A stretch of 64,000 bases of DNA from Oscillospiraceae bacterium. GTDB taxonomy: Bacteria; Bacillota; Clostridia; Oscillospirales; CAG-272. This document shows positions 3,702 through 40,732 of the stretch, piece by piece. The stretch spans positions 127,462-191,461 of the forward strand of contig SVSP01000002.1 of the NCBI GenBank assembly GCA_015064255.1. The letters are read 5' to 3'. A program made the translations under genes and the position numbers. Position 1 is the first letter of the stretch; every line of letters begins with the position of its first letter. Under the pieces are notes generated by a model that saw only the letters and a list, made by a program, of their open reading frames with translations, was not told where the DNA came from and did no database searches.

Positions 3702-3780
3702 CTCGGGGCTTTGCCCCGAGCCCCCCACCAAACCCCTTTTTGAAAAAAGGGGTTGGATCCCCAAAAACTTTTCTGAAAAG
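3702..3780 (+). repeat. Modular hairpin element, forward unit (hp1 + hp2 + box)
   Basis: hp1 ctcggggctttgccccgag at 3702-3720; hp2 ccaaacccctttttgaaaaaaggggttgg at 3728-3756; box ccccaaaaacttttctgaaaag at 3759-3780. Starts 4 nt after the pepF stop. Confidence 0.85.
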
Positions 3781-3794
3781 GTAAGAATAAAAAT

Positions 3795-3830
3795 AACCCC
3801 GACAGATTTCTGTCGGGGTTATGTGTTTTT
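3795..3830. terminator. Bidirectional intrinsic terminator (pepF / TPR gene)
   Basis: aaccccgacagatttctgtcggggtt stem-loop with a T-run on the + strand and an A-run upstream. Lies between convergent genes. Confidence 0.7.
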
Positions 3831-4636
3831 TAAATATTTTCAAGCATTTTCTTTGCCTGCTCGACCATATAAAGCTTGTTTCCGTTTTCGACGATGAAAT
3901 CAAGCTTTTCCTTTGCTTTTTCTTTTTCACCGAGTCCGATATAGACCTTCGCATATACCATAGATGCGCAAACGCTGTCGAGTAGAGTTTTTCCTTTGAA
4001 GCTTTCAAGTGTTTCGAGTGCGGCTTTGAACTCTTTTTTTCTTAAATTTTCCAAAGCTTTTGCGAGAATTATCTCTTTGGAGTTTGACATACCCAGCTTT
4101 TTTGCGGAAATCATTGTTTTTTCGTGCCATAGAGACGCGTTTTCGAAGTCTCCGAGCTCGTCATACGCATCGGACATATTGTTGTAGTATATCATATTGA
4201 TAAATCCGCGGTAAGGTGAGAGAAACTTGTATTTGTCGGTGTCAAAAGTTTCAAGTGTTTCAATTACCCCGGAATATTCTCCCATATACCCGAGCGCGAC
4301 CGTGTAGTTGAGCAGAACGAGCTGATTTGCCACGCCGTGCTTTACGTACTTTAACTGCTCTTTTGTTTCGCTGAGCAGAGGAGTCGGGTCGCAGCCTTCG
4401 CTAAGTGCTTTTGACGCGGTCCGCATCAGCCTGTCCGAGGATGATTCTACAAAGCCGAATGATAAAACCGCAAAAAAGAGATAAAAGATAGCGTATATCC
4501 ACGCATCTGATCGTATTTTCCACAGAAAAGGTGAAATTGCCGCGCACAAAACGGCGGTTATTATTACAGTTGAAATGAGTTTGTGTTTTAGAAGTAACCG
4601 GTACATTTTAAGCCTCTGAATAACGTCTCTCGGCAA
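3830..4636 (-). CDS. Hypothetical membrane protein with TPR-like C-terminal repeats
   Basis: 268 aa with two N-terminal TM helices followed by helical-repeat-like sequence. No recognisable catalytic motif. Confidence 0.4.
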   Translation of the reverse strand: MPRDVIQRLKMYRLLLKHKLISTVIITAVLCAAISPFLWKIRSDAWIYAIFYLFFAVLSFGFVESSSDRLMRTASKALSEGCDPTPLLSETKEQLKYVKHGVANQLVLLNYTVALGYMGEYSGVIETLETFDTDKYKFLSPYRGFINMIYYNNMSDAYDELGDFENASLWHEKTMISAKKLGMSNSKEIILAKALENLRKKEFKAALETLESFKGKTLLDSVCASMVYAKVYIGLGEKEKAKEKLDFIVENGNKLYMVEQAKKMLENI

Positions 4637-4726
4637 CTGCCTTGCTGCCGAGCGAAAGTAAGATATATTTTAACACAAATCCGTGAAAAAATCAATAACA
4701 AATGTTACAGATATTGTTATTTGTCG

Positions 4727-4763
4727 AAAAAAACGGTTTCGAATTCCGAAACCGTTTTTTGTT
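4727..4763. terminator. Intrinsic terminator downstream of the GH2 gene
   Basis: aacggtttcgaattccgaaaccgtt at 4732-4756, flanked by an A-run and a T-run, immediately after the GH2 stop at 4764-4766. Confidence 0.75.
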
Positions 4764-7544
4764 TTACAGAATACTGAACGAAAACTCCTTTTCTCCGCCG
4801 TAAATACCTGCTTTTCCCGCATTTGCGCGGATAATAATAGTGATTTCAAAGCTGTCATCGCCGCAGGTGTCGAAATATATCTTTCGTCTTGTCGGCCAAG
4901 GATTCTGACTTCCCGTGTAATCTGACAGGTCGCTGTCAACAAGCCTTCCGTTTATCCAGACCTCATATTCGAGATAAACGATATGTCCGATACTGAGAAG
5001 TGCCTTTTTGTTTTCGCCCCTGATGGTCGGAATTTTCACCGTGTGACGGTAGAATTTCCAACCCTTGTCGAAATCCTGGAAGCTTCGAACCTCCATCTTC
5101 CACGAAACGAAGTTGTTCATATCGGTATCGGAAAGAACCATATTCGGGTCGGGCTTCTCGGGGAAGGTTACGTTTGAAACGGTTATCTCGTCTATCTTTC
5201 TTCCGTAGCTTTCGGGAAGATAAATATCCTGCTTCGCGTTTACAATGTCGAAGGTTATCGTTTCATCGGCGCATCCTTCACAGGAGATTACAACCGAAGC
5301 TTTCTCGGCACGGTCTTTTACCTGCATTATAGCCTGACATCTTCCTGCAAAAAGGTATCTTTCGCTTGCTTTTTCGGCTTCGTGGCTGTTTGGATTGCCG
5401 TTTCCGACGCCGATTATCTCACAGTCCCCTATAGCCTTGAATTTTATAAGATTGTCTGCATTGTGAACTACGCTTCCTGATGCATCGGTGAGGTAAACGT
5501 CTATGGCAGAAGCGTCCTTTCCGCTGTTGTCAAGCACTGCTTTGTGAGCCGTTGCAATAATTCTTGAGGGTGCGGACGGTGTTCTGAGTGTGTCCTCGCA
5601 GACTATTTCTCCGTCCTTGTATCCGATAGCGTTAAGTACGCCCGGAACAAATTCGATCTCCCAGTAGCACTGCGATGAGAGCTTGGACTCGCGTCTTCCG
5701 AGCGACTCCCCGTTGAGATAAAGCTCTACCTCGTCTGCGTTTGTTACGGTCATTATCTTGACCTTTTCGCCCTCTTTGTGATTCCAGTGGTGGAGTATTT
5801 TCATCATAGGCTCGTCTGTGAAGCAAGCGCGCATTACGTGTGCAGATGCTTTAGGGTATCCGCAGAGATCGAAAACTCCGAAAAGGGAAACAACCGTCGG
5901 GTACTTGAAGGGAGTGGGCTCTCCGCGGTAGTCAAATCCGGTCCAGATGAAGAGTCCTGCGATCCACTCACGCTCGGAAAGTACCTTCCACGCATCCTGC
6001 ATAGTGCAGCCCCACGGCACCGTATAGCTGTCAAAATCTTCGATGAGATTGTTGTCGAGATCTCTTGTCTGCTGTCCGCGGATCGCAAGTGCCGAAAGAT
6101 TTTCGCTTCCCGTTGTGGGTATGTTCGGATATTCGGCGCGGATCTTATCTACCGAAGCGTGGTTGTAATTTACGCCGAAAACGTCCATTTCGTATATTGC
6201 GCCCGTGCCTGTGTAGAAATTCGTGTTTTGCGCGGCAGTTGTCGGACGCGTAGGATCGAGCTTTTTTATCGCACTCTTGAGTCGTGCGTAAAGAGTACTC
6301 GATTCCTCGCTGCCCTGTATTGCCTCTTCGTTGAATATCGACCACATAATAACGCTCGGATGGTTGCGGTCGCGCTTTACCATAGTGCGGATGTTGAGAA
6401 GAGTATCGTCGTTTGCTTCAAATCGGCGGTTTTCGTCCATAACGAGTATTCCGTATTTGTCGCACGCGTCTAAAATTTCGCGCGCGGGAATATTGTGAGC
6501 ACATCTGTAGGCATTTACTCCCCACTCCTTGAGGATCTGTATTCTCATATCCTGAATGGAATCGGGGACGGCTACGCCGACACCCGCGTGGTCCTGATGA
6601 CAGCAAACGCCCTTGAGAAGAATATGTCTGCCGTTTAAGAAAAATCCCTTTTCGTTGTCAAAATAGAACGTTCTGAAGCCGAAATTCGTACTGTCCTCGT
6701 CAAGAAGCTCGTTTTCGCGGTAGATGCGGGCAAATGCCTTGTAGAGATTCGGCTCGTTAATATCCCAAATATCGGGGTCTTCGACGGTCATTTCAAGCTT
6801 TACAGTCTTTGTTTCGTCGAAATCCATAGAGTTGTTCTTTTTCGCTACGGCAACGCTTTCACCGTATCTGTCGAAAAGCTCTACCTCGACAGTAAACTCT
6901 CCGCTTGGCGTGTATGCGCTGTTTTCGACCTCAATTTCGGCAAATACACTCCATTTGTTGCCGTCGCCCTTGACAGGATTTATCCACAATCCGTTGTGCG
7001 CGATGTGGAGAAGCTCTTTCGCGTAGAGCTTTACGTGTCTGTAAATTCCCGTGCCTTCGTACCACCATCCTTCACAGCTTTTGCCGTCTACCTCTACAGA
7101 GATCAGGTTCGCGCTTTTGCCGAATTTGACACGGGGTGTGATGTCAAGAACGGTTTCGCTGTACGCGCTCGTAGAGCGTCCCGCGAGCGAACCGTTGAAA
7201 TATATATTGGAAAAAACCGAAATTCCTTCAAAAACGAGGGTAAAATGCTTGTTTATGTATTCAGTAGGCATTTCAAAGCTTTTTCTGTACCATACGTTTT
7301 CTCTTATCTTCGAGCCGTGAGAGGGCGGTGTGCTGTCATCGAATCCGACCTCGACTCTTCGGTCGTGAGGAAGATCAACTATGCGCCAATCGTCGTCGTT
7401 GTATTTGAAGCCCGCTTCGCCGTGTGCTGCACCCGTCTTAACGCTTGAATATATTTCGGCGTGGCTGTTCGCACCGTTTTCGATGTTGGTATCGTCCACA
7501 GCCTTGAATTTCCAGTTTTTATCTGCGTTAAATAAAGTTCTCAT
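4764..7544 (-). CDS. Glycoside hydrolase family 2 (beta-galactosidase/beta-glucuronidase-like)
   Basis: ORF 4764..7676; start set at the ATG at 7544 (MRTLFNADKNWKF) with GGAG upstream. Shows a GH2 sugar-binding/TIM-barrel pattern (NAYRCAHN, HPSVIMWSIFNE). Confidence 0.8.
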   Translation of the reverse strand: MRTLFNADKNWKFKAVDDTNIENGANSHAEIYSSVKTGAAHGEAGFKYNDDDWRIVDLPHDRRVEVGFDDSTPPSHGSKIRENVWYRKSFEMPTEYINKHFTLVFEGISVFSNIYFNGSLAGRSTSAYSETVLDITPRVKFGKSANLISVEVDGKSCEGWWYEGTGIYRHVKLYAKELLHIAHNGLWINPVKGDGNKWSVFAEIEVENSAYTPSGEFTVEVELFDRYGESVAVAKKNNSMDFDETKTVKLEMTVEDPDIWDINEPNLYKAFARIYRENELLDEDSTNFGFRTFYFDNEKGFFLNGRHILLKGVCCHQDHAGVGVAVPDSIQDMRIQILKEWGVNAYRCAHNIPAREILDACDKYGILVMDENRRFEANDDTLLNIRTMVKRDRNHPSVIMWSIFNEEAIQGSEESSTLYARLKSAIKKLDPTRPTTAAQNTNFYTGTGAIYEMDVFGVNYNHASVDKIRAEYPNIPTTGSENLSALAIRGQQTRDLDNNLIEDFDSYTVPWGCTMQDAWKVLSEREWIAGLFIWTGFDYRGEPTPFKYPTVVSLFGVFDLCGYPKASAHVMRACFTDEPMMKILHHWNHKEGEKVKIMTVTNADEVELYLNGESLGRRESKLSSQCYWEIEFVPGVLNAIGYKDGEIVCEDTLRTPSAPSRIIATAHKAVLDNSGKDASAIDVYLTDASGSVVHNADNLIKFKAIGDCEIIGVGNGNPNSHEAEKASERYLFAGRCQAIMQVKDRAEKASVVISCEGCADETITFDIVNAKQDIYLPESYGRKIDEITVSNVTFPEKPDPNMVLSDTDMNNFVSWKMEVRSFQDFDKGWKFYRHTVKIPTIRGENKKALLSIGHIVYLEYEVWINGRLVDSDLSDYTGSQNPWPTRRKIYFDTCGDDSFEITIIIRANAGKAGIYGGEKEFSFSIL

Positions 7545-7676
7545 AGTGTGAAAAATCTCCTTTACTTTATCGTTCCATCGATTGTAGCATATTTTGGGGG
7601 CTTTGTCAACAAGAAAGCAAGTGAAGGTATTAATTGATAAAAATGACAAAAATTCAAATAAATTTTCAAATCCCAC

Positions 7677-7704
7677 TTGTATTTTTTTGAAATTGTGGTA
7701 TAAT
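7677..7704 (+). promoter_or_regulatory. Extended -10 promoter for the decarboxylase cluster
   Basis: TTGTAT at 7677-7682, 16-nt spacer, TGgTATAAT ending at 7704. Followed by a leader of about 200 nt before the ATG at 7909. Confidence 0.5.
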
Positions 7705-7908
7705 CAATTTTAGAATGGGGTAGGATGTTGGTTTTGTGTAAAATATACCCGAGCAGAGCATCCGAAGTCTGTTCTGTGTGTATGAGAATTTCGGTAAAAA
7801 GATATTCTTATATACAAAAAAGTACTTATCAGCCTCGGGCTGAAACAATAAAAAGTGAGAAAGGGTTTTGTTCACTGAAAAAAGTGGACAGCAAGGTAAG
7901 TTGGTTCT

Positions 7909-9273
7909 ATGAGCAACACAAACAAAAGCATATCCCTGCTCTTCGACGAAGGTACGTTTGTTGAAACCGGAGCCTATATCACAGTAGGAAATGACGACTC
8001 CAAGAAGTCGGGCGCTACTTGTGGCTACGGTGCTATAAACGGTGCTCTGGTCTTTGCGTTTGCACAGGACTTTTCTGTCGAAAAGGGCGCGCTCGGAAGA
8101 GCACAGGCTGAAAAAATTTGCGCACTTTACGATATGGCACTTAAAAACGGAGCTCCCGTTATAGGAGTATTCAGCAGTGCCGGCGTAAGAGTTAAGGAAG
8201 GAAGCGCAGTTCTCGGAGCATACGGTAAGCTTCTCGCAAAGATAAACGCGGCTTCCGGAGTTATTCCGCAGATCGCAGTTGTTGATGAAGTTTGTTCCGG
8301 TCTTTCGGCAACAGCGGCATCTATGTTCGATATCGTTATAGCGGACAGCGCATCTAAATTCTACATTACACCTCCCGGTGTTGCAAAGGTAAACGGTGTT
8401 TCCGAAGCGGGAAGCGCGGCATATGCCTTTGAAAACGGAAATATTGATATAGTTTGCGAAGGTAAGGAAGATTCTCTCGCAAAGGCACGCGATATCGTAT
8501 CCGTGCTTCCTCAGAATTCTGCTCAGGGCTATGCGTATGCGGAAGCAGATGACGACGCTTGCAGAGTAACTGCAGAGCTTGAAAACGCAAAGGACGTACG
8601 CGAAGCGGCAGCAATTATTGCAGATAACGGTCATTATACCGAGCTTAAGGCTGATTTTGCACCGAACGCTCTTACGGCTATCGCATCTCTCGGTCAGATC
8701 ACAGTAGGTATCTGCGGTCTCGGCGGAGCACTCGGCGCACCTGAAGCGAAGAAGATCTCTTCTTTCATTTCCTTCTGCGATAACTTCTCTATGCCTGTAA
8801 TTACAGTTCTCGACAGCTGCGGTGCAGATCACGAATCGGGCGATGAAATTCTCCCCGGAGAATTTGCAAAGCTTGCTTCGGCTTATGCAGGCGCAAACTG
8901 TCCTAAGATCACATATATTCTCGGTAAGGCTTACGGTGCGGCATTCACTCTCGTTGGCTCGAAGGCACTCGGCGCAGATATGGTTTACGCTGCTCCCAAG
9001 GCTGAAATCAGTGTGCTTTCTCCCGAAGCTTCGGTACAGTTTATGTTTGCAGACGAGATAAAGGCTGCTGACGACAGTGCCGCAAAGCGTGCAGAGCTTC
9101 TTAAGAAGTGGAAGAGCGAAGAAGCGCTTCCCGAAAAGGCTGCAGCAAACGGCTCTATCGATGACGTTGTTGCGTACGCAGAAACAAGAGCAAGAATTAT
9201 CTCTGCTGTTGAAATGCTCTTTGCAAAAATCTCGGGAAATCCCGCAAAGAAGCATTCAAAGCTTCCTTTCTGA
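7909..9273 (+). CDS. Acyl-CoA carboxyltransferase (12S / MmdA / PccB-like), short and divergent
   Basis: 454 aa with a two-lobed carboxyltransferase pattern (LLFDEGTFVE, GYGAINGALVFAFAQDF, NGAPVIGVFSSAGVRVKEG). An in-frame stop 12 nt upstream fixes the N-terminus. Confidence 0.7.
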   Translation: MSNTNKSISLLFDEGTFVETGAYITVGNDDSKKSGATCGYGAINGALVFAFAQDFSVEKGALGRAQAEKICALYDMALKNGAPVIGVFSSAGVRVKEGSAVLGAYGKLLAKINAASGVIPQIAVVDEVCSGLSATAASMFDIVIADSASKFYITPPGVAKVNGVSEAGSAAYAFENGNIDIVCEGKEDSLAKARDIVSVLPQNSAQGYAYAEADDDACRVTAELENAKDVREAAAIIADNGHYTELKADFAPNALTAIASLGQITVGICGLGGALGAPEAKKISSFISFCDNFSMPVITVLDSCGADHESGDEILPGEFAKLASAYAGANCPKITYILGKAYGAAFTLVGSKALGADMVYAAPKAEISVLSPEASVQFMFADEIKAADDSAAKRAELLKKWKSEEALPEKAAANGSIDDVVAYAETRARIISAVEMLFAKISGNPAKKHSKLPF

Positions 9274-9328
9274 GTTTAAAACTCGGAAACTAAAATTAAA
9301 CTAATGATGAAAGGGGAAAATTTACGAT

Positions 9329-9745
9329 ATGTATATTCCCGTACTCGTAGATCTGACATCGGCGGACGTAACAAAGCCTATTGAAAATATGGCTGACCGT
9401 CTTTCGGCAGCAGGACAGACAATCGTTCTCGGAATGCTTGCGGTATTTTCGGTTCTTGCGATACTTTGGCTCGTTCTTTCTATTATGGGTAAGTTCTTTA
9501 CAACAGAAGTTAAAGCTCCCAAGGAAGAAAAGAAAGAAGAACCTGTAGCTCCGGCAGCACCCGCAGCACCCGCAGCTCCCGTGGCACAAGCACCTGCTCC
9601 CGTTGCAAACGATGAGGAGATCGTTGCCGCTATCACCGCGGCAATCTCGCTTATGCTTGATAAGCCGCAGACAGCTTTCCGCGTAGTTTCCTTCAGACAG
9701 GCATCGCGTGAGGCTTTCCGCAGAAACAATATTAACAGAAACTAA
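9329..9745 (+). CDS. OadG/MmdD-family small membrane subunit of Na+-translocating decarboxylase
   Basis: One TM helix (IVLGMLAVFSVLAILWLVLSI), an Ala/Pro linker, and the DEEIVAAITAAI motif typical of the OadG family. The start could instead be the internal Met. Confidence 0.65.
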   Translation: MYIPVLVDLTSADVTKPIENMADRLSAAGQTIVLGMLAVFSVLAILWLVLSIMGKFFTTEVKAPKEEKKEEPVAPAAPAAPAAPVAQAPAPVANDEEIVAAITAAISLMLDKPQTAFRVVSFRQASREAFRRNNINRN

Positions 9746-9786
9746 CCTTATTAATAAATAATCCAAGAAAGAGAAGGTTTTATACA

Positions 9787-10185
9787 ATGAGAAAATTCAG
9801 CGTTACAGTAAACGGTACAGTATATGAAGTTGAAGTAGAGGAAATCGGCGCAAACGAATCTGCTCCCGTAGCAGCTCCCAAGGCAGCTCCCGCACCCGCA
9901 GCGGCTCCTAAGGCAGCTCCCGCACCTGCAGCGGCTCCTGCAGCAGCTTCCAAGGCGGCAGCTCCCACATCGGGAACACCCGTTAAGGCTCCGATGCCCG
10001 GTACGATAGTTAAGGTAAAGGTATCCGAAGGTCAGGCAGTTAAGAACGGCGACGTTGTCTGCGTTATCGAGGCTATGAAGATGGAAAGCGATATTTGCGC
10101 TCCCTGCGACGGAACGGTTGGAACTATCGTTACCAAGAGCGGCGCATCGGTCAACACAGACGATCTTCTTCTCACTATTGCTTAA
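9787..10185 (+). CDS. Biotin carboxyl carrier protein (1.3S / MmdC-like)
   Basis: 132 aa with an Ala/Pro-rich linker and the biotinyl-lysine motif VIEAMKMES. Confidence 0.85.
   Translation: MRKFSVTVNGTVYEVEVEEIGANESAPVAAPKAAPAPAAAPKAAPAPAAAPAAASKAAAPTSGTPVKAPMPGTIVKVKVSEGQAVKNGDVVCVIEAMKMESDICAPCDGTVGTIVTKSGASVNTDDLLLTIA
9880..9939 (+). repeat. In-frame 30-nt tandem duplication in the BCCP linker
   Basis: aaggcagctcccgcacc[c/t]gcagcggctcct occurs twice (KAAPAPAAAP x2) with one mismatch. Confidence 0.8.
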
Positions 10186-10227
10186 ATCAGAGCACATCCT
10201 TAAACTTAACGAAAGGACTTTGCAAAA

Positions 10228-11427: not shown

Positions 11428-11467
11428 TTAGTCAGATTCAAATAAGAATCGGAAAGTGAGATAAAAA

Positions 11468-12865: not shown

Positions 12866-12879
12866 CTTATAAAATAAAA

Positions 12880-12920: not shown

Positions 12921-13005
12921 TCAGTAAAGTTTTTGCCTTAAGGGACGCTGTTCCTTAAGAAACCCTGCGGGCGTTTGAAAAAGCTCGACCAAAACTTTTA
13001 AAAAC
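12921..13005. repeat. Degenerate modular hairpin element copy
   Basis: Box-rc tcagtaaagtttttg at 12921-12935; hp1-like cttaagg...ccttaag at 12937-12959; linker-like aaccc; decayed hp2 (gtttgaaaaagc); decayed box accaaaacttttaaaaac. Confidence 0.55.
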
Positions 13006-13284: not shown

Positions 13285-13311
13285 CTTTTCAGAAAAGTTC
13301 TTGGCGGGTAC
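13285..13311 (-). repeat. Truncated modular hairpin element, minus orientation
   Basis: The minus strand reads gtacccgccaagaacttttctgaaaag (linker, hp2 left arm fused to box). It begins 2 nt after the stop of the minus-strand gene 13314..14141. Confidence 0.6.
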
Positions 13312-15824: not shown

Positions 15825-16215
15825 GGAACCGAGCTGTGCTGTCGCGCGGTATGTCGCCGAAAGGTATTACCGTGAGGAAAGTCCGGGCACCGTAGTGCAG
15901 GATAACGGATAACGTCCGCCGAGGGTGACCTCAGGGAAAGTGCAACAGAAATAAACCGCCCGCCCGTTTTCGGGAAGGTAAGGATGGAAAGGCGAGGTAA
16001 GAGCTCACCGGCACATTGGTAACTTTGTGCGTCACTGTAAACCCTATCCGGTGCAACACCTATGCAAACCGGCAGAAATGCCGATGCCTGCACGGCATTT
16101 GTTTTGTCAGGTGGCACAGAGCCGTACGGCAACGTACGGACAAGATAGATGACAGCTCAAGGTCGGCAAAGCTTCCGCCGACCCCGACAGAACCCGGCTT
16201 ACAGGCTCGGTTTCG
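15825..16215 (+). ncRNA. rnpB: RNase P RNA, bacterial type A
   Basis: P4 signature GAGGAAAGTCCGGGC near the 5' end and ACAGAACCCGGCTTAC near the 3' end. P1 pairing is aaccgagc (15827-15834) with gctcggtt (16205-16212). Confidence 0.9.
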
Positions 16216-16249
16216 GACATTTTATTAAATTGTTTGTGGAGGCATAGAT

Positions 16250-20231: not shown

Positions 20232-20306
20232 CCAAGGACTCTGTCCTTGGATCCTGCTTAAACCCTTTTTGAAAAAAGGGTTTAAGAATCCCAAAAACTT
20301 TTCTGG
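20232..20306 (+). repeat. Modular hairpin element, forward unit (hp1 + hp2 + box)
   Basis: hp1 ccaaggactctgtccttgg at 20232-20250; hp2 cttaaaccctttttgaaaaaagggtttaag at 20257-20286; box cccaaaaacttttctg at 20290-20305. Starts 10 nt after the galE stop. Confidence 0.85.
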
Positions 20307-28165: not shown

Positions 28166-28590
28166 CCAAGGGCGTTGCCCTTGGAACCCGCTTAGAAACT
28201 TTTTGAAAAAAGTTTCTAAGAACTTCAAAAACTTTGCTGAAAAAGAGCAAGATTCGGAGGAGGCAGTTTTTGCGTCAGCAAAACTGCCAAGCGATGACGA
28301 AGTCATCGGTTTTCCCTTATGGAAACCCTGCCAAAACCCTTTTTGAAAAAAGGTTTTGGATTCCCAAAAACTTTACTGAAAAGAAAAAATAATAGTCGAA
28401 GCGACACGAAGTGTCGGTTTGGGCGCGTAATTTGCGGTTTTTGCTTACTCATAGTTTATCAGGGGTACGGACCGTCGAGGACGCCGGTCCCTACAATGGA
28501 TTTAATATTATAAACTAAAACAAATTCCTTCCCCCTTTAAGAAAAGTTTTTGGGAAGGTGCGGAAACCCTTTTTTCAAAAAGGGTTTCTG
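28166..28590. repeat. Array of modular hairpin element units and accessory hairpins
   Basis: Forward unit 28166-28245; hairpins 28262-28288 and 28292-28308; forward unit 28331-28383; hairpin 28402-28416; hp4 28469-28495; reverse unit 28527-28590. Fills the carB-pyrK spacer. Confidence 0.85.
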
Positions 28591-32472: not shown

Positions 32473-32671
32473 GCGCATAAAATAAGCACAAACACAGAAG
32501 GCGCTTACTCACGATTTTGGCTGTGCCAAAATCTCAAAATAAGAATATACGATATTTTTTGCACCTTTTTGCATTTTTTGCTAAGGTGCAAAAGGCGTAT
32601 ATATAAGGAAATGAAAAATATATTTTAATTTGCTTATTTGTGCCGTTTTGGCACGGAAATGGGAGAATAAA

Positions 32672-34020: not shown

Positions 34021-34084
34021 ATTTGATTTGCTGTTTTATAACAGTTGACCATATAAATATTAAAATTTTTGTGCAATATCTCTA

Positions 34085-34113
34085 TTGACTTTAGCACTTT
34101 AAAGTGGTAAAAT
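34085..34113 (+). promoter_or_regulatory. Promoter of the his operon
   Basis: TTGACT at 34085-34090, 17-nt spacer, TAAAAT at 34108-34113. Leader of about 35 nt to the hisZ ATG. Confidence 0.55.
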
Positions 34114-34150
34114 CATATCTATCGATCCTACCAGAAAGGCAGAAACAAAT

Positions 34151-35278
34151 ATGAACGGCGGTTTTGCTGCAGATAAGAATATATTTAAAACAGAAGAAAG
34201 AGTGACCTTTGCTCTGCGCGGACTTTACCGTGCATTCGGCTATAAGCCGTATAAAATGAGCAAATTCGAGGAATACGACCTTTACGTGCGCAATAAGGAC
34301 TTCCTTATAAGTGACAGAGTTATCACGTTCACAGGGGAAAGCGGCAAGCTTCTTGCGCTTAAACCCGACGTAACTCTTTCGATAATAAAAAATACTCCCG
34401 AATCTTCCTCGGGTATAAACAAAATATACTATAACGAAACCGTTTACCGTTCATCGGGCGCAAGCGGCTCGAAGGAGTTTTCCGAAATAATGCAGACAGG
34501 TCTTGAATGCTTCGGAAAGCTTGACAGCTACAACGTTTGCGAGGTGATTATGCTTGCCATTCGCAGTCTTGCGACCGTAAGCGACAAATACATACTTGAT
34601 ATTTCTCATATGGGAATACTTTCCGCGCTTCTTGATGAGGCAGGTCTTTCGGGCGAGCTCAGACAGAAGATGCTTCTTTGCATAAGCGAAAAGAACCGTT
34701 CGGGCGTAGCTATCGTATGCGACGAAGCAGGACTCAACGGTGAAATGAGCGAATGCTTTGCAAAGCTCGTTTCGGCATACGGCAAGATAGACGAAGTTGT
34801 TTCGCTCCTCGGAGAGATATGCCGCACACCCAAGGCGCGTGAGGCTCTTGACGAGCTTGTTCTCGTTTGCGAAATGACGAAGAAATGCGGAGTATCCGAA
34901 CACGTTTGGATAGATTTCTCGGTAGTGAACGATATGCGCTATTACAGCGGTATAGTTTTCAGAGGATTTATCGACAATATTCCGACGGGCGTTCTTTCGG
35001 GCGGAAGATATGACAATCTTCTTTCGAAAATGGGACGCGAGGGCGGAGCTATCGGCTTTGCGGTATATCTTGATCTGCTTGAGCGTCTTGACAGAAGCTC
35101 GGCAGACTGCGATGCGGATATTTTCCTTATTTACGGCGAAAATAACTCTCCCGCAGACGTGTTTGCTATGACCGAAAAGCTTACTGCAAACGGCGAAAGT
35201 CTTATGTCGGGCAGAGAAGTTCCCGAAAATATGACGTTTAAGAAGATCGTTGATATGAGAAATGGCGGTGAGGTCTGA
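34151..35278 (+). CDS. hisZ: ATP phosphoribosyltransferase regulatory subunit
   Basis: 375 aa HisRS-like paralog located directly upstream of a short-form hisG. Confidence 0.85.
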   Translation: MNGGFAADKNIFKTEERVTFALRGLYRAFGYKPYKMSKFEEYDLYVRNKDFLISDRVITFTGESGKLLALKPDVTLSIIKNTPESSSGINKIYYNETVYRSSGASGSKEFSEIMQTGLECFGKLDSYNVCEVIMLAIRSLATVSDKYILDISHMGILSALLDEAGLSGELRQKMLLCISEKNRSGVAIVCDEAGLNGEMSECFAKLVSAYGKIDEVVSLLGEICRTPKAREALDELVLVCEMTKKCGVSEHVWIDFSVVNDMRYYSGIVFRGFIDNIPTGVLSGGRYDNLLSKMGREGGAIGFAVYLDLLERLDRSSADCDADIFLIYGENNSPADVFAMTEKLTANGESLMSGREVPENMTFKKIVDMRNGGEV

Positions 35279-35280
35279 TT

Positions 35281-35910
35281 ATGGCTGATTTTGTAAATAT
35301 TGCGCTTCCCAAAGGAAGACTTGGAGAAAAGGTCTATTCTATGTTCGAAGCGGCAGGTTATCCTTGTCCTTCGATCAAAGAAAACAACAGAAAGCTCATA
35401 TACGAAAATCCCGAGGTCGGAGTCAGATATTTTTGGGTAAAGCCGTCCGACGTATCGATATACGTTGAAAGAGGTGCGGCTGATATCGGAGTTGCGGGCA
35501 AGGATATTCTTCTTGAATATACGCCCGACGTTTACGAGCTTCTCGATCTCAAAACAGGCGTGTGCCGTATGATGGTTGCCGCTATGCAGGACTACCGAAG
35601 CGATCCCGATAAAACGCTCCGCGTGGCAACGAAATTCCCGAATATTGCGCGCAGTTACTACGACAGACAGCGCAGAGAGATAGATATTATCACTCTTAAC
35701 GGCTCAATAGAGCTTGCTCCCATTCTCGGACTTTCGGACGTTATCGTTGATATAGTGGAAACGGGAAAAACACTTTATGAAAACAATCTTGCACCGTTTG
35801 AAAAGATAGTTGATATAAGTGCTCGCCTTATTGCAAACAAGGCAAGCTTTAAATTCAAAAATGCGGCGATAGAAGAGATATATTCTTCGCTTGCAAAAAT
35901 CGTAGAGTGA
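35281..35910 (+). CDS. hisG: ATP phosphoribosyltransferase (short form)
   Basis: 209 aa; ALPKGRL N-terminus and DIVETGKTL motif. Confidence 0.9.
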   Translation: MADFVNIALPKGRLGEKVYSMFEAAGYPCPSIKENNRKLIYENPEVGVRYFWVKPSDVSIYVERGAADIGVAGKDILLEYTPDVYELLDLKTGVCRMMVAAMQDYRSDPDKTLRVATKFPNIARSYYDRQRREIDIITLNGSIELAPILGLSDVIVDIVETGKTLYENNLAPFEKIVDISARLIANKASFKFKNAAIEEIYSSLAKIVE

Positions 35911-35922
35911 GAGGGAATATAA

Positions 35923-37197
35923 ATGATAAAAATATTTGAAGATATAAAAAATATAGATAAAACTCTCCTTTTTAACCGTTCGCTTTCGGCATCGGGTGTT
36001 GAGGATATCGTAAGTGATATAATTTCAAACGTGCGCAGCCGCGGCGACGAGGCACTTTTTGAATACACAGAGCGTTTCGACAGAGCAAAGCTGACATCTC
36101 TTGAGGTATCAAAGGAAGAAATCGAAAAGGCTGTCAGCGAGATCGGCGAAGAATTTATGGGAGTTTTGCGCCGTGCGGCTGAAAATATTGAAGCATTCCA
36201 CAAAAGACAGGTAAGAAACAGCTTTATTATAAACGAGAAAAACGGCGTGGTTACCGGACAAAAGGTGATTCCTCTTGCCAAGGTCGGAATTTACGTTCCG
36301 GGTGGCACGGCGGCTTATCCGTCCTCCGTGCTTATGAATGCAATTCCCGCGAAGCTCGCAGGAGTAGGCGAGATCATTATGGTTTCACCCGCAAGCGGAG
36401 GAAAGATTGCTCCCGCTATTCTTGCGGCGGCATACGTGGCAGGAGTTGACCGCGTGTTCGCTCTCGGCGGAGCGCAGGCTGTTGCAGCACTCGCATACGG
36501 AACAAAGAGTGTTCCTATGGTTGACAAGATAGTCGGACCGGGTAACGCGTTTGTTGCAGAGGCGAAGCGTCAGGTTTACGGTCAGGTTGCGATAGATATG
36601 ATCGCAGGGCCGAGCGAAATTCTCGTAATTGCAGATAAAAATTCAAATCCCTCTTACGTTGCCGCCGATATGCTTTCGCAGGCAGAGCACGACAAAAATT
36701 CGACCGCGGTTCTTATTACCGACAGCATTGAGCTTGCTGAAAAGGTTTCGGACGAGCTTGAACGTATGATCCCTCTTCTTCCGAGAGCCGAGATCGCCCG
36801 CGCTTCTGTCGATAACAACGGAAAGATCATCGTTACCGACGATCTCCTCGAAGCGATTGAGCTTTCAAACGATATCGCTCCCGAGCATCTTGAGCTTTGT
36901 CTTGACGATCCTTTTGCTGTTCTTGACCGTGTGAAGAATGCAGGATCGGTATTTATGGGAAGATATTGTCCCGAAGCTCTCGGCGACTACTTCGCAGGAC
37001 CCAATCACACACTTCCCACCAGCGGAACTGCAAGATTCTCAAGCCCTCTTTCTGTTGACGACTTCGTTAAGAAAATGCAGTACACCTACTTCACCAAGGA
37101 AGCGCTCGGCGAGGTTGCAGACGACGTTATGGCTTTTGCCGAAAAAGAAGGTCTCTCCGCACACGCACGCAGCGTAGGAGTACGCAAAGGGACTTAG
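35923..37197 (+). CDS. hisD: Histidinol dehydrogenase
   Basis: 424 aa; QAEHD motif and GDYFAGPNHTLPT. The stop TAG lies inside repeat hairpin 37193-37211. Confidence 0.95.
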   Translation: MIKIFEDIKNIDKTLLFNRSLSASGVEDIVSDIISNVRSRGDEALFEYTERFDRAKLTSLEVSKEEIEKAVSEIGEEFMGVLRRAAENIEAFHKRQVRNSFIINEKNGVVTGQKVIPLAKVGIYVPGGTAAYPSSVLMNAIPAKLAGVGEIIMVSPASGGKIAPAILAAAYVAGVDRVFALGGAQAVAALAYGTKSVPMVDKIVGPGNAFVAEAKRQVYGQVAIDMIAGPSEILVIADKNSNPSYVAADMLSQAEHDKNSTAVLITDSIELAEKVSDELERMIPLLPRAEIARASVDNNGKIIVTDDLLEAIELSNDIAPEHLELCLDDPFAVLDRVKNAGSVFMGRYCPEALGDYFAGPNHTLPTSGTARFSSPLSVDDFVKKMQYTYFTKEALGEVADDVMAFAEKEGLSAHARSVGVRKGT

Positions 37198-37336
37198 GGT
37201 TCTGCCCTAAGAACCCGCCAAAACCCTTTTTGTAAAGAAGGTTAAAACGATTTGCGCGCAAATCGTTTAAGAATTCCCAAAAACTTTACTAAAAGGGGGA
37301 ATTATAATTGTAGGGACAGGCGTCCTCGACTGTCCG
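37193..37336 (+). repeat. Modular hairpin element copy (hp1 + interrupted hp2 + box + hp4)
   Basis: hp1 cttagggttctgccctaag at 37193-37211. hp2 is interrupted by the perfect 24-nt palindrome aaacgatttgcgcgcaaatcgttt at 37245-37268. Box at 37275-37295; hp4 tgtagggacaggcgtcctcgactgtcc at 37309-37335. Confidence 0.85.
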
Positions 37337-37360
37337 CTTGAAGAAATACAGGTTAATATT

Positions 37361-38440
37361 ATGAGTAAATATATGAACAAAAAATACGCCGAGCTTACGG
37401 CGTACACACCCGGCGAACAACCGCTTGGTGTCAAATACATAAAGCTTAATACAAACGAGTCCCCCTTTCCGCCCTCTCCCGACGTGCTCGTGTCGATAGG
37501 CTACGGCGAGCTTTCCGATCTTCGTCTTTACTCCGACCCCGATTGCCGCGGACTTCGCAAGGCGCTCGGAGAGTTCTACGGACGCGAAACCGACGAGATT
37601 TTCGTTTCAAACGGCTCGGACGACATTCTGAACTTCGCATTTATGGCGTTTTCCGAAAGGGGCGTTGTCTTTCCCGATATAACCTACGGTTTTTACGAGG
37701 TCTATGCGAAGCTGCACGGTGTAAATTACGAAAAAAAGCCTCTTTGCGATGATTTCACCATAAAAACCGAAGATTATCTTAACGAAAACGGCAAACTTAT
37801 AGTTATCGCAAATCCAAATGCACCGACCGGAATTTTTAAACCGCTTGGCGAAATCGAGCGTATACTTAAGGCAAATCCCGACAGCGTTGTGCTTGTCGAT
37901 GAAGCGTACATTGATTTCGGCGGCGAAAGCGCCCTGAAACTGCTTGACAGCTACAAAAATCTGCTTGTCGTACGTACTTATTCCAAGTCAAGAAGCCTTG
38001 CGGGAGCGCGTCTTGGATTCGCTTTCGCGGATAAAGAAATTATTGCCGATCTTAATAAGCTGAAATTCTCGACCAATCCGTACAGCATCAACCGACTTAC
38101 ATTAATTGCGGGCGAAGCGGCTCTTCGGAACGGAAAATATTATGAGGACAACGCGAAAAAGATCATCGAAACACGAGAATACGTTACAGAAAAACTACGC
38201 GAAATGGGCTTTGAGGTTATAGAGTCTGCGGCAAATTTCGTTCTTGCAGGACACGACGCGATTTCCGGCTCGCTTTTTGCTGAAGAAATGAAAAAACGCG
38301 GTATTCTGATAAGACATTTCTCGGGCGTACGTCTTGAAAAATATAACCGCATAACGATAGGAACTCGCGCCGAAATGGACGCTTTCCTCTTCGCCGCTGA
38401 GAAGATTATAGCCAAGGGCGCTGCCCTTGGAACCCGCTAA
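37361..38440 (+). CDS. hisC: Histidinol-phosphate aminotransferase
   Basis: 359 aa class-II aminotransferase with the PLP lysine region RTYSKSRSLAG. The last 9 codons are encoded by repeat hp1 and linker. Confidence 0.9.
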   Translation: MSKYMNKKYAELTAYTPGEQPLGVKYIKLNTNESPFPPSPDVLVSIGYGELSDLRLYSDPDCRGLRKALGEFYGRETDEIFVSNGSDDILNFAFMAFSERGVVFPDITYGFYEVYAKLHGVNYEKKPLCDDFTIKTEDYLNENGKLIVIANPNAPTGIFKPLGEIERILKANPDSVVLVDEAYIDFGGESALKLLDSYKNLLVVRTYSKSRSLAGARLGFAFADKEIIADLNKLKFSTNPYSINRLTLIAGEAALRNGKYYEDNAKKIIETREYVTEKLREMGFEVIESAANFVLAGHDAISGSLFAEEMKKRGILIRHFSGVRLEKYNRITIGTRAEMDAFLFAAEKIIAKGAALGTR

Positions 38441-38567
38441 AGAACTTTTTGAAAAAAGTTCTTTGGAATCTCAAAAACTTTGCTGAAAAAATTAGTAAGA
38501 ATCCAACCCCTTTTAAGAAAAGTTTTTGAAAGGGCTTGTGGAAACTTTTTTCAAAAAGTTTCCACAA
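38412..38567. repeat. Composite modular hairpin element (forward + reverse units, inverted-repeat structure)
   Basis: hp1 at 38412-38430; hp2 at 38439-38464; box at 38469-38490; box-rc at 38507-38534; hp2 ttgtggaaacttttttcaaaaagtttccacaa at 38536-38567. Confidence 0.9.
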
Positions 38568-38586
38568 AGAGAAAGGAAATAAAATA

Positions 38587-39174
38587 ATGAGAAACAGTGA
38601 AATTTTGCGCAAAACCGCAGAAACAGATATTGAACTGAAGCTTGACCTTGACGGCAAGGGCGAGAGCGATATTGATACGTCCTGTCCGTTTCTTGACCAT
38701 ATGCTGACACTCTTTGCAAAGCACTCAAGATGTATGCTCTACGTAAGATGCAAGGGCGATACAGAGGTTGATTATCATCACACGGTCGAGGATATCGGAA
38801 TTTGCCTCGGCGACGCGATAAAGGAATCACTCGGTAATAAAATGGGAATCGCACGTTACGGAAATGCGATAATTCCGATGGACGAGGCACTTCTTCTCGT
38901 GTCTATCGATCTTTCGGGCAGAGCAACGCTTGCATTTTCGACCGAAGGACTCACCGAAAAGGTGGGAGATTTCGATACAGAGCTTGTTAAGGAATTTTTC
39001 GCGGCGCTTGTCAGAAAATCGGAAATGACACTCCATATAAGACAGCTTGCAGGTGAAAATACACACCATATCATCGAAGGCATTTTCAAGGCATTCGCGG
39101 CGGCTCTCCGCGCGGCAGTAGCACTTGACTCGGCAAGAGCAGGTGAGATTCCTTCTACAAAGGGCGTGCTCTGA
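38587..39174 (+). CDS. hisB: Imidazoleglycerol-phosphate dehydratase
   Basis: ORF 38536..39174 starts inside the repeat, so the ATG at 38587 (MRNSEILRKTAETDIEL) is used. Motifs HHTVED and HHIIEG. Confidence 0.9.
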   Translation: MRNSEILRKTAETDIELKLDLDGKGESDIDTSCPFLDHMLTLFAKHSRCMLYVRCKGDTEVDYHHTVEDIGICLGDAIKESLGNKMGIARYGNAIIPMDEALLLVSIDLSGRATLAFSTEGLTEKVGDFDTELVKEFFAALVRKSEMTLHIRQLAGENTHHIIEGIFKAFAAALRAAVALDSARAGEIPSTKGVL

Positions 39175-39791
39175 TGATAGCGATAATTGACTACGGAGTG
39201 GGAAATCTTTTCTCGCTCGGCTCGTCGCTTGCCGCACTCGGCATAGATTCGGTAGTTACGGATGACGAAGCAGTAATAAGAAACGCGGATAAAATAATTT
39301 TGCCCGGAGTCGGCGCGTTCAGAGATGCGTCCGAAAAGCTCGCCGAGCGCGGATTTGATAAGCTTCTCAAAGAGCTCGCGGCGCGGGGCAAGCCGATTAT
39401 GGGAATTTGCCTCGGTATGCAGCTTCTTTTCGATGAAAGCTATGAGTTCGGCAGATATAAAGGTCTCGGACTTATAAAAGGCAGCGTTAAGCCGATAGCG
39501 GACATTATTCCCGCAGACCTTAAAATCCCTCATATCGGTTGGAACGGACTGATTTTCCCCGAAAATAAGGATAAAAACGAGATATTTAAATACATTAACG
39601 AGGGCGACTGCGTTTATTTCGTTCACTCATACTACGCAACCGATTGCGATGATGCGGTAATTGCAAACACCTCGTACGGTGCGCCCCTTACAGCCGCAGT
39701 TGCTTCGGGAAATGTTTACGGCTGTCAGTTCCACCCCGAAAAAAGCGGAAACGTGGGACTTTCGATAATAAAGGCATTTGCCGAGCTTTAA
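39174..39791 (+). CDS. hisH: Imidazole glycerol phosphate synthase, glutamine amidotransferase subunit
   Basis: 205 aa with the catalytic GICLGMQ motif and C-terminal QFHPEKS. Confidence 0.9.
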   Translation: MIAIIDYGVGNLFSLGSSLAALGIDSVVTDDEAVIRNADKIILPGVGAFRDASEKLAERGFDKLLKELAARGKPIMGICLGMQLLFDESYEFGRYKGLGLIKGSVKPIADIIPADLKIPHIGWNGLIFPENKDKNEIFKYINEGDCVYFVHSYYATDCDDAVIANTSYGAPLTAAVASGNVYGCQFHPEKSGNVGLSIIKAFAEL

Positions 39792-39812
39792 TTACATTAA
39801 AAGGACAAAACT

Positions 39813-40526
39813 ATGATAATTTTTCCTGCAATAGATCTTTACGAGGGCAAGGCGGTGCGTCTTTACAAGGGCGACTATGCACAGCTCACGGTTTATGATG
39901 AAAATCCGATAAATACGGCAAAAAAATTTGTAGCAGAAGGCGCGACACATATCCATATGGTTGACCTTGAGGGCGCGCGTGACGGCAACACCCCGAATTT
40001 CGAAACAGTAAAACAGATAGTTACTTCGACCGATCTTTTTGTTGAGATCGGAGGCGGAATACGCGATATGGAAACTATCGACAAATATCTTTCTATCGGT
40101 GTTGGACGTGTTATTCTCGGTACGGCGGCTGTTTCAAGCGAGGGATTTGTAGAGCGTGCCGTAGCTAAATATGGCGACAAAATAGCAGTCGGGGCAGATA
40201 TAAAGGACGGCGAGATAGCCGTTAAAGGCTGGGTAGAAAAAAGCGGTGTCAAGAGCGACGATTTCTTTGAAAAAATGCAGAAGATCGGCGTAAAAACTGT
40301 TATTTGCACCGATATCTCGCGCGACGGAGCTATGCGCGGTACAAATCTTGAGCTTTACAAGTCGCTTTCTGAAAAATATGATATGAACATAATTGCTTCG
40401 GGCGGTGTTTCTTCGATGGACGACGTTATCGCACTTCGCAAAATGAACGTTTACGGCGCGATAATCGGCAAGGCTTATTACACCGGCGCTATCAAGCTCT
40501 CGGATGCGCTTAGGGCTCTGCCCTAA
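39813..40526 (+). CDS. hisA: ProFAR isomerase
   Basis: 237 aa; MIIFPAIDL N-terminus and (beta/alpha)8 HisA pattern. The last codons and the stop lie in repeat hairpin 40509-40527. Confidence 0.9.
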   Translation: MIIFPAIDLYEGKAVRLYKGDYAQLTVYDENPINTAKKFVAEGATHIHMVDLEGARDGNTPNFETVKQIVTSTDLFVEIGGGIRDMETIDKYLSIGVGRVILGTAAVSSEGFVERAVAKYGDKIAVGADIKDGEIAVKGWVEKSGVKSDDFFEKMQKIGVKTVICTDISRDGAMRGTNLELYKSLSEKYDMNIIASGGVSSMDDVIALRKMNVYGAIIGKAYYTGAIKLSDALRALP

Positions 40527-40732
40527 GAACCCGCCAAGGGCGCTGCCCTTGGAACTCGCCAAAGAACTTTTTGTAAAAAGTTCTTTGGAATCTCAAAAAC
40601 TTTACTGAAGGAAATATTATTATTTCTTTTTAAGAAAAGTTTTTGAATGGGTTTGGGAAAACTTTTTTCAAAAAGTTTTCCCAAGAGAACGTTTTAGAAA
40701 GGCATGGAAAACCTTTTATTAAAAGGTTTTCC
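40509..40732. repeat. Composite modular hairpin element (two hp1, forward unit, reverse unit, extra hp2)
   Basis: hp1a at 40509-40527; hp1b at 40534-40552; hp2 at 40559-40588; box at 40591-40610; box-rc at 40627-40650; hp2 at 40653-40684; hp2-like ggaaaaccttttattaaaaggttttcc at 40706-40732. Confidence 0.9.

Follow-up and report, generated by a model that had tools for sequence, protein, structure and literature searches.

The described repeats that come closest to the one examined here are the REP/BIME and REPIN-RAYT palindromes of Enterobacteria and Pseudomonas, in which the REP tag is a GTAG (or CGTC) tetranucleotide at one end of the palindrome (PMC3733652), and the BoxC/PIT/TMECO repeats of Escherichia coli (Hoyne et al. 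2000; Holder et al. 2015, PMC4666352). The BoxC consensus reads CCCTCNCCC N3-6 GGGNGAGGG N3 GGGNGAGGG, with triplex stems of at least 8 to 9 nucleotides (nt), and these intrastrand triplex repeats have been shown to fold in vitro (PMC4666352); for H-DNA, a mirror repeat is the requirement (PMC4666352, PMC11667243). We analyzed a 64,000-nt stretch of an Oscillospiraceae genome (contig SVSP01000002.1, positions 127,462 to 191,461; hereafter, the window), which contains about 14 copies of a modular intergenic repeat made of two hairpins, hp1 and hp2, and a short box. No description of this family was found in the searchable literature, which was also queried with the raw core and box strings, and it is apparently undescribed. 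At gathering scores, Rfam recognizes an RNase P RNA and one tRNA in the window and has no match for the repeats, and permissive Rfam scans of two element regions returned only far-subthreshold, hairpin-like models, mostly of microRNA precursors.

The units are high-copy, modular, interspersed intergenic DNA repeats that are REP/BIME-like in their genomic behavior. From the covariation of three segments within each unit, we hold with moderate confidence that selection acts on a doubly folded DNA strand, of the intrastrand triplex or H-DNA type, in a REP/BIME-like family that is recognized by its structure. More tentatively, the structure maintained in Clostridia and at least six other phyla may be an intramolecular, strand-switching DNA triple helix whose third strand at the hairpin apex would be the box.

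Covariation of three segments within each unit

Forward units are ordered hp1 (zero to two copies), a 6-nt tail (A-A-C-C-C-G), hp2, a spacer, and the box. The hp1 hairpin has an 8-bp G+C-rich stem and a pyrimidine-rich triloop, and hp2 has an outer stem of 7 to 10 bp around the core TTTTTGAAAAAA, within which four A-T pairs close a TGAA loop. A pyrimidine spacer of 4 to 7 nt leads from hp2 to the box, CAAAAACTTTNCTG. The box occurs 16 times in the window (1.1 expected) and the core 18 times (3.2 expected). Folding of the units as single-stranded DNA with ViennaRNA yielded exactly these hairpins (z-scores of -4.5 to -7.1), and hairpins only; in composite units, the DNA folds place a central stem, formed by a box and an inverted box, between hp2 hairpins on both sides, the order in Ruminococcaceae being hp2 - box - spacer - box' - hp2'.

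The original prediction for this DNA held that stems differ between copies by complementary changes while loops, core, and box stay constant. The stems that it quoted are all present where it had placed them, including the outer stems of hp2. In hp1, they read CTCGGGGC ttt GCCCCGAG at 3702-3720, CCAAGGAC tct GTCCTTGG at 20232-20250, CCAAGGGC nnn GCCCTTGG at 28166-28184, 38412-38430, and 40534-40552, and CTTAGGG. tct.CCCTAAG at 37193-37211 and 40509-40527. What had been described as an NNNTG loop is instead a closing pair and a triloop, its first and last bases being paired (C..G, T..G, or, in relatives, T..A, the last of these seen in GGGGT-nnn-ACCCC variants of hp1). Nor is the T5-G-A6 core invariant: the window also has TTTTTGTAAAAA, TTTTATTAAAA, and, in reverse orientation, TTTTTTCAAAAA, and relatives carry TTCTT..AAGAA and other forms.

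Pairing in hp2 was assessed with a pattern that contains no stem bases (core-N12-18-CAAAAACTTT), applied to one genome from each of 185,579 species. Among the matches listed, there are at least 120 loci, with 131 hits and 123 distinct hp2 units, and the core is flanked by complementary arms in almost every one, a few chance hits aside. The 8-nt arms form eight of eight Watson-Crick pairs in 68 of the 131 hits and seven of eight in another 38, as opposed to an average of 3.6 of 8 when arms are permuted between units. The predicted complementarity of the arms exceeds chance by pair counting over the 123 units, with 88.3% of stem cells paired vs 58.5% after shuffling (0 of 500 shuffles); the covariation score is 0.823 (0.262 shuffled), and structures slid by one column are 52 to 56% paired. 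All nine stem pairs of hp2 vary on both sides, with three to five pair types each, and in 45% of elements, the 45 nt that precede hp2 include a perfect hairpin of 6 bp or more, compared with 7.6% of random 45-mers. Pairing is preserved while primary sequence is not, as had been proposed, which argues for a selected single-strand structure, and the same holds at the orthologous sites described below.

The variability of the arms bears on the possibility that the repeats are protein-binding sites in duplex DNA (a proposal made for BIMEs, with a nucleoid protein, gyrase, or a regulator as the ligand), with A/T tracts that bend or are recognized and palindromes that bind dimers. The core and box do form phased A/T tracts that are conserved across phyla, and two reports describe binding of several proteins to REP/BIME (PMC2817692, PMC3479197). 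A sequence-specific site, however, would keep its stem sequence, whereas the 131 hits comprise 99 distinct 8-nt arms with pairing kept, and strand polarity would stop a symmetric dimer from reading a mirror repeat. By eye, neither the CodY box, an IHF site, nor promoter (sigma-70) or terminator consensus sequences fit, and the family occurs in phyla that lack CodY. We consider a duplex protein site highly unlikely. Comparisons by eye also gave no support for an anti-Shine-Dalgarno mimic, an integron attC site, or a G-quadruplex or i-motif, the retained covariation of A/T-rich variants being an argument against the last two.

The arms of hp2 covary with a third segment, the spacer before the box, which contains essentially no G. 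Mutual information between the 5' arm and the spacer is 0.5 to 0.9 (z = 16 to 43) along a single diagonal that runs parallel to the 5' arm and is about 0 off that diagonal, with values of 0.90 for arm position 2 and spacer position -1 (z = 34), 0.59 for positions 5 and -3 (z = 36), and 0.52 for positions 6 and -4 (z = 43). The code from arm to spacer is G to C (73 of 76), A to T, and C to C, and a parallel arm-spacer model matches 70.7% by pair counting, as opposed to 57.4% shuffled (0 of 500), with its maximum at slide 0. The spacer is a mirror image of the 3' arm, not its reverse complement, as in locus L118 (CAGGGGAAAC-core-GTTTCCCCTG-CA-CCCCTT-CAAAAAC). The 5' arm is otherwise free to vary, but counting from the core, it is purine in 97% of units at position 5 and in 99% at position 6. 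An alternative hairpin, in which the spacer would pair antiparallel to the 5' arm, was rejected (59.8% vs 56.7% shuffled, with no peak), the orientation of the diagonal also being against it, and a third hairpin between the spacer and the purine run after the box performed no better than permuted controls.

The tails that follow hp1 are mirrored in the same manner: GGGGC-nnn-GCCCC is followed by CCCCG, GGAC/GTCC by TCCTG, GAGAC/GTCTC by CTCTG, and GGGGT/ACCCC by CCCCA, and G-runs of 3, 4, or 5 are matched by C-runs of 3, 4, or 5 in the tail. On the element strand, the mirror 5-mer is perfect in 30 of 75 tails and matches at four of five positions in 33 of 75, as opposed to 0 of 77 and 4 of 77 in the opposite-strand flank of the same hairpins.

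A corresponding relationship links the core of hp2 to the box. Cores of the form TTCTT..AAGAA are accompanied by the box CAAGAAC in nine of nine units, all with different stems. Where the core is asymmetric, AAGAAA is matched by AAAGAA, AAGAAAA by AAAAGAA (twice), GAAAAA by AAAAAG, AAAAGAAA by AAAGAAAA, and AAGAAAGAAAA by AAAAGAAAGAA; in these six units (five distinct variants), the box is the mirror of the core and neither its reverse complement nor a direct copy. If the box were instead read as a reverse complement of the core's 5' half, the symmetric forms (TTTTT and TTCTT) would be accommodated, but none of the six asymmetric units would be. On this pattern, the box is the mirror tail of the A/T apex of hp2, and its constancy only reflects that of the core, such that the proposed constancy of loops and box stands only for units with an unchanged core, the box varying with the core when the core varies.

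Beside a selected RNA or single-stranded DNA structure, which our results favor, the original prediction had named a mechanism that recreates an arm by copying its partner. In the absence of any structural selection, replication template switching in quasi-palindromes would copy arm from arm and produce paired changes, a process that is documented and able to create and maintain perfect stems (PMC8794818, PMC5453318). In one relative (L126), the left arm of the hp1 at the hisD end consists of conserved coding sequence, to which the right arm is complementary, and precise hairpin deletions between short direct repeats point to slippage-prone sequences. Such a mechanism could explain the Watson-Crick compensation but not the third covarying segment: it cannot yield the mirror segment, the purine-only 5' arm, or a box that mirrors the core, and it cannot keep core and box constant while four-fold sites approach saturation. 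To our knowledge, no polymerase makes a mirror copy, only an antiparallel complement, so arm-to-arm templating does not explain the third segment, and mirror symmetry, which cannot be templated, is what separates structural selection from templated repair as the cause of the compensated stems. Template switching may contribute to stem compensation, but as sole cause it is already refuted by the covariation of the mirror tails, and a purely mutational origin is the least probable of the explanations considered here.

Placement, inheritance, and spread of the units

All of the units in the window lie outside open reading frames (ORFs) or at their very ends. They occupy the intercistronic gaps of the his operon (hisD|hisC|hisB...hisA|hisF), the carB-pyrK gap, and several 3' regions, and the divergent promoter regions of the window contain none. 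Forward units begin at stop codons or a few bases away, and inverted units of hp2 and box are situated just upstream of the ribosome-binding site of the next gene (pyrK, hisB, and hisF).

In the his operon, the unit at 37193-37291 (+) carries the hisD stop codon (TAG) in the left arm of its hp1 (37193-37211), followed by the tail AACCCG, an hp2 (37227-37275) interrupted by an unrelated 24-nt perfect hairpin (AAACGATTTGCGCGCAAATCGTTT), and the box (37276-37291); in relative L128, the hp2 at this site is intact. The hp1 (38412-38430) of the full unit at 38412-38485 (+) lies inside the last hisC codons and is followed by a tail (38431-38436), hp2 (38437-38466), the spacer AATCT, and a box (38472-38485) with which the box of the inverted unit at 38515-38567 (-), just upstream of the hisB ribosome-binding site, is able to pair. 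The double-hp1 unit at 40509-40607 (+) consists of an hp1 that contains the hisA stop codon (40509-40527), a second hp1 (40534-40552), hp2 (40559-40588, core TTTTTGTAAAAA), and a box (40594-40607). Upstream of hisF are an inverted hp2 and box (40632-40684, -) and, directly before the start codon, an unstranded hp2-like hairpin without a box (40709-40735; GGAAAACC TTTTATTAAAA GGTTTTCC), at a site that is conserved in related species.

In 22 of 32 cases, hp1 starts between -22 and +20 nt relative to a stop codon on the same strand. The last nine codons of hisC and the last five of hisA are encoded by hp1. Translation of hisA stops within the right arm of its hp1, and that of hisC where hp2 begins, immediately beyond its hp1; the corresponding genes of relatives terminate at different stop codons within their own copies of hp1. 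Overlap of the modules with the 3' ends of coding sequences, at 37193-37197, 38412-38440, and 40509-40526, takes in stop codons and gives housekeeping proteins (such as HisC, HisA, and HisD) short C-terminal extensions.

The carB-pyrK gap holds a full unit that starts one base past the carB stop codon (28166-28239, +; hp1 28166-28184, tail AACCCG, hp2 28191-28220, spacer AACTT, box 28226-28239), an hp2 and box without hp1 (28331-28378, +; CCAAAACCC core GGTTTTGG ATTCC CAAAAACTTTACTG), and an inverted hp2 and box (28539-28590, -) that ends about 20 nt before the pyrK start codon. The gap also has two small GAA-triloop hairpins, CGATGAC-GAA-GTCATCG (28293-28309) and CGACAC-GAA-GTGTCG (28398-28412), and closure by C-GAA-G is a motif of very stable DNA mini-hairpins.

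Elsewhere in the window, a full unit at 3702-3775 (+) directly follows the stop codon of an M3 peptidase gene, upstream of a true terminator (hp1 3702-3720, C-rich tail 3721-3728, hp2 3728-3756 with its core at 3737-3748, spacer ATCCC 3757-3761, box 3762-3775), and another spans 20232-20305 (+), with an hp1 of the GGAC/GTCC variant (20232-20250), the mirror-variant tail ATCCTG (20251-20256), hp2 (20257-20286), the spacer AATCC, and a box (20292-20305). An hp2-type module at 44-93 (+) reads GGAACCC T6GTA5 GGGTTCC, spacer, and the variant box AAAAAACTTTACTT; an unstranded composite at 116-187 has an inverted box (116-129, -), hp2 (139-161), and a forward box (172-187). The unstranded unit at 12922-13003 is degenerate, with an inverted box (12922-12937), decayed hp1-like and hp2-like hairpins, and a weak forward box. 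A remnant at 13290-13305 (-), after the stop codon of a minus-strand gene, reads ACCCG-CCAAGAACTTTTCTG, its hp2 hairpin having been precisely deleted, and the same deletion form occurs in relatives.

The remaining features of the window are the RNase P RNA of bacterial class A (15826-16217, +; Rfam, 261.8 bits), the tRNA gene (62276-62349, -; Rfam gathering score), and, at 9538-9963, tandem 9- and 12-nt repeats of the GCAGCACCC and GCAGCTCCC types in overlapping ORFs on both strands, which may encode an Ala/Pro-rich low-complexity protein segment.

That units sit within operons, after one stop codon and ahead of the next ribosome-binding site, would suit a role as operon punctuation at the level of RNA. 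Units transcribed with the his and pyr operons would protect the ends of mRNA segments, with hp1 and hp2 shielding the segment before them at its 3' end and the inverted hp2 shielding the segment after it at its 5' end; RNase would act at the A/U-rich box or at a box:box' duplex, and a U.A-U / C+.G-C triple (class III) would further block 3' exonucleases in an ENE-like manner. The proximity of hp1 to same-strand stop codons favors this explanation, as do the position of the 3702 unit between a stop codon and a real terminator, which implies that it is transcribed, the central box-box' stem of composites between flanking hp2 hairpins, and the conservation of copies in place across species. Orientation does not: in co-directional gaps, the element is antisense as often as sense (18 vs 21), and the distribution of hp1-bearing units (12 vs 6) is not significant. 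On the element strand, A.C mismatches outnumber G.T mismatches (34 vs 19), leaving no excess of G.U, and many copies lie between convergent genes or downstream of terminators. RNA can form pyrimidine-type triplexes but not purine-motif triples (PMC4666352), and the candidate triples of apex and box (A.A-T and G.G-C), together with everything on antisense copies, would be of the purine motif. RNA-level punctuation is, in our judgment, doubtful. A role as intrinsic (Rho-independent) terminators was rejected, in that the hairpins are followed by A-C-rich spacers rather than a T run, the 3702 unit is upstream of a canonical terminator, and the his units are operon internal; ordinary terminators are present elsewhere in the window.

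Orthologous his operons were compared in six relatives whose HisB proteins are 86 to 92% identical to that of the window. The relatives have elements in the same three his gaps, with different modules: hp1 at the hisC end is CCAAGGG/CCCTTGG in the window, CTTAGGG/CCCTAAG in L125, and CTCAGGG/CCCCGAG in L126, hp1 may be single or double, and in some cases hp2 has been lost by exact deletion between short direct repeats (ACCCG-CCAAAAACTTT). Upstream of hisB, the inverted box AAAAGTTTTTG is identical in six of seven genomes (the exception being L129) and cores differ at 0 to 3 positions, and the 5' arm and spacer of the orthologous hp2 read GTGGAAAC/CCCTTT, GGGAAAAC/CCCTTT, or GAGAAAAC/CTCTTT, depending on the species. 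Four-fold degenerate sites of hisB and hisH differ by 28 to 63% in these comparisons. Over divergences that bring synonymous sites close to saturation, core and box stay constant, and the three segments covary among copies as well as at orthologous sites.

Orthologous copies have idiosyncratic flanks in common, and identity after the box is 0.427 within and 0.432 between genomes, which rejects concerted evolution within genomes of this clade. Because orthologs share flanks, box and core are constant, and paralogues are no more alike, the copies are old, vertically inherited, and constrained in place, with stems that drift by coordinated changes. Presence also varies: downstream of pyrF, where the window lacks a unit, one is found in three species, with a stem that differs from species to species. 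Comparison of filled and empty sites downstream of pyrF revealed no target-site duplication, the flanks being too diverged. Within species, no clean pair of filled and empty sites was found, and two JGI metagenome contigs (L121 and L122) are 100% identical to the window. A third contig (L123), 99.8% identical over hisB-hisH, has a different gene end upstream of hisB (L123:1-95, against window 38483-38577); synteny breaks at window position 38578, the inner edge of the inverted unit, through either a rearrangement at the repeat or a chimeric assembly.

Carriers of the family include Clostridia, Negativicutes, Alphaproteobacteria (Acidocella isolates), Desulfovibrionaceae, Verrucomicrobia, Acidobacteriota, Aminicenantes, and Omnitrophota, amounting to Clostridia and at least six other phyla. 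Core, box, and architecture are the same across these phyla, and distant ones show lineage-specific extensions of the element. Complete or isolate genomes with the family include those of Anaerotruncus massiliensis AT3 and Acutalibacter caecimuris, both cultivable, Acidocella facilis ATCC 35904, and Halodesulfovibrio spirochaetisodalis. Well-formed units are present on about eight predicted viral contigs in IMG/VR (L133, L134, L136, L139, L141, L142, L143, and L146), a possible route for spread between lineages; metagenome 3300031555 is the source of contigs L133 and L142 and also of a contig identical to the window. Of the first 80 pattern matches, at least 21 lie within about 200 nt of a contig end (loci L002, L005, L008, L009, L011, L014, L026, L028, L031, L033, L039, L043, L044, L052, L059, L060, L062, L066, L067, L074, and L076), as expected from a high copy number, and the repeats probably fragment metagenome assemblies.

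Two variants of the architecture were observed outside the window. In Acidocella and a proteobacterial metagenome-assembled genome, units are symmetric (box' - hp2' - long terminator-like hairpin - hp2 - box; L001 at ~2700-2810, L054 at ~6950-7160, L064 at ~4690-4830, and L082 at ~4430-4540), a nesting opposite to that of the Ruminococcaceae composites. In many genomes, the hp1 slot is filled by GCCTCCGGCGGC or its variants GCCTTCGGCGAC and GTCTCCGACGGC, which covary as G-Y-C/G-R-C around a TYC triloop (L014, L028, L034-L036, L043, L074, L078, L081, L087, L099, L103, and L107); the opposite strand reads GCCGCCGGAGGC and can supply a GGAGG ribosome-binding site.

The candidate fold

In the doubly folded DNA strand that we favor as the object of selection, the purine-rich 5' arm of hp1 or hp2 would pair with the pyrimidine-rich 3' arm to form a hairpin, and the stretch that follows, the C-rich spacer after hp1 or the pyrimidine spacer and CAAAAAC box after hp2, mirrors the 3' arm. 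This layout (purine strand, loop, Watson-Crick pyrimidine strand, short link, mirror strand) is that of a single-strand "paperclip" triplex, with the element strand belonging to class III of the Hoyne/Holder triplexes and the complementary strand to class I. The candidate triples agree with known orientation rules throughout the module. Along the outer stem, the pyrimidine third strand would run parallel to the purine 5' arm in T.A-T and C+.G-C triples; at the A/T apex, with its purines on the 3' side, the third strand would consist of purines and run antiparallel to them, in A.A-T triples and, in the AAGAA variants, G.G-C triples as well. The complementary strand would meet the reciprocal orientation rules. 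The selected form would be a folded single strand of DNA, present as the lagging-strand template, as a transposition intermediate, or by extrusion from supercoiled duplex. The evidence leans toward single-stranded or supercoiled DNA, rather than RNA, as the medium because there is no G.U excess, no bias in orientation relative to transcription, and half of the candidate triples are of the purine type.

A trans-acting factor would recognize this fold, most likely a structure-specific single-stranded DNA enzyme that spreads or maintains the modules. Such an enzyme would account for the copy number, the shuffling of modules, the occurrence in several phyla, and the copies on viral contigs, and elements would survive at tolerated positions, immediately behind stop codons and within intercistronic gaps. 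Function and mobility form the weakest step of this proposal. A mobile, structure-recognized element of the REP/RAYT or IS200-PATE type fits the spread over phyla, the viral contigs, the matches at contig ends, and the lineage-specific extensions; a host-level role, in DNA or as RNA operon punctuation, fits the constraint in place, the stable orthologous positions, and the lack of an associated gene.

Several points weigh against selection on a triplex-folded, mobile DNA strand. The case for the triplex comes from covariation of sequences, and the fold is a prediction. Pyrimidine triples require protonated C; the triple stretches are short, at 4 to 6 nt in hp1 and about 9 to 12 nt in hp2 if the strand switch is accepted; the linker between 3' arm and tail is only 1 to 2 nt if the outer two to four stem pairs are closed; and one rule is noncanonical, a C in the 5' arm (a C-G pair) corresponding to C, not G, in the spacer. 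The direction of the mirror is established by the six units with asymmetric cores (five distinct variants), and the AAGAA/CAAGAAC class may derive from a single event. All-against-all clustering of 713 ORFs from 120 loci of 8 to 12 kb revealed no recurrent gene family near the elements, none of the 20 window proteins scanned is a transposase, and neither a target-site duplication nor a clean within-species pair of filled and empty sites was found. Orthologous copies that appear vertically inherited and constrained in place fit a host function at least as well as a selfish element. With these points considered, we rank DNA structure first and RNA punctuation second and place the purely mutational and duplex protein-site explanations low.

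If true, the DNA fold would be the first triplex motif in any genome to be backed by three-way covariation, the type of evidence that established RNA secondary structures, and it would imply conserved cellular or mobile-element machinery that reads triplex-folded single-stranded DNA. The family would represent hundreds of natural "compensatory mutants" of one triplex design, making the relevance of triplexes in vivo testable. It also constitutes an abundant repeat family in the poorly studied gut and rumen Oscillospirales and in distant phyla, with units inside operons that may affect expression.

Comparison with known repeat systems

Like the REP/BIME and REPIN-RAYT families, the repeats are short imperfect palindromes in high copy number, extragenic, at the 3' ends of genes and within operons, in mosaic clusters of units in alternating orientation. 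Stems kept by compensated changes are a further shared property, as described in two accounts of REP (PMC3116915; PMC2817692). Unlike REP, hp1 and hp2 have no flanking GTAG or CGTC tag, their arms are asymmetric in purines and pyrimidines and followed by a mirror tail, and their core and box are common to several phyla, whereas REP families are lineage specific. No RAYT gene was found in the available sequence (loci of 8 to 12 kb). A second family, of classical GTAG-tagged REP (GTAGGGAC[C/A]GGCGTCC[T/C]CGAC[G/T]GTCC), occurs in the window at 37310-37340 (+) and 28460-28495 (-) and in L128, L029, L051, L058, L072, L092, L101, and L120. Its stem varies by compensated changes (GGACAG/CTGTCC vs GGACCG/CGGTCC), and its presence suggests that these genomes encode a RAYT-type transposase.

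Miniature inverted-repeat transposable elements, the pneumococcal BOX and RUP elements, and the Neisseria Correia elements are also small, noncoding, and multicopy, overlap gene ends, and are modular, as hp1 (zero to two copies), hp2, and box are, with a variable number of modules and, in some units, inverted boxes that resemble termini. Such inverted boxes flank the unit at 116-187 and those of Acidocella (L001, L054, and L064), and most units have one box. The hp1/hp2 family differs in that no target-site duplication was identified at the pyrF-downstream sites and no parent insertion sequence or transposase in the loci of 8 to 12 kb, and in that its orthologous copies appear old and constrained rather than decaying. 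With H-DNA mirror repeats it shares a mirror-symmetric, pyrimidine-rich tract with a center of 3 to 5 nt (PMC11667243), but its mirror repeat is fused to an inverted repeat, the purine partner lies in cis on the same strand, and the tracts are short and not strictly homopurine or homopyrimidine.

The closest structural parallel is with BoxC/PIT/TMECO, which are likewise interspersed intergenic repeats built from three consecutive blocks (purine, Watson-Crick pyrimidine, and mirror), a plan seen here in hp1, in hp2, and in the covariation of core and box. In both, the presence of one triplex class on a strand entails the partner class on the opposite strand, and there is no apparent promoter or terminator role or link to the function of neighboring genes. 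The triplex has been physically demonstrated for BoxC/PIT, whereas that of hp1/hp2 is proposed from sequence. The hp1 and hp2 sequences are unrelated to CCCTCNCCC-N-GGGNGAGGG-N-GGGNGAGGG, the host range differs, and the stretch of G/C triples is only 3 to 6 nt. In contrast to BoxC, the triple segments of hp2 would switch strand between the G/C outer stem and the A/T apex, and the stems of hp1 and hp2 are highly variable, making visible a covariation that has not been reported for BoxC.

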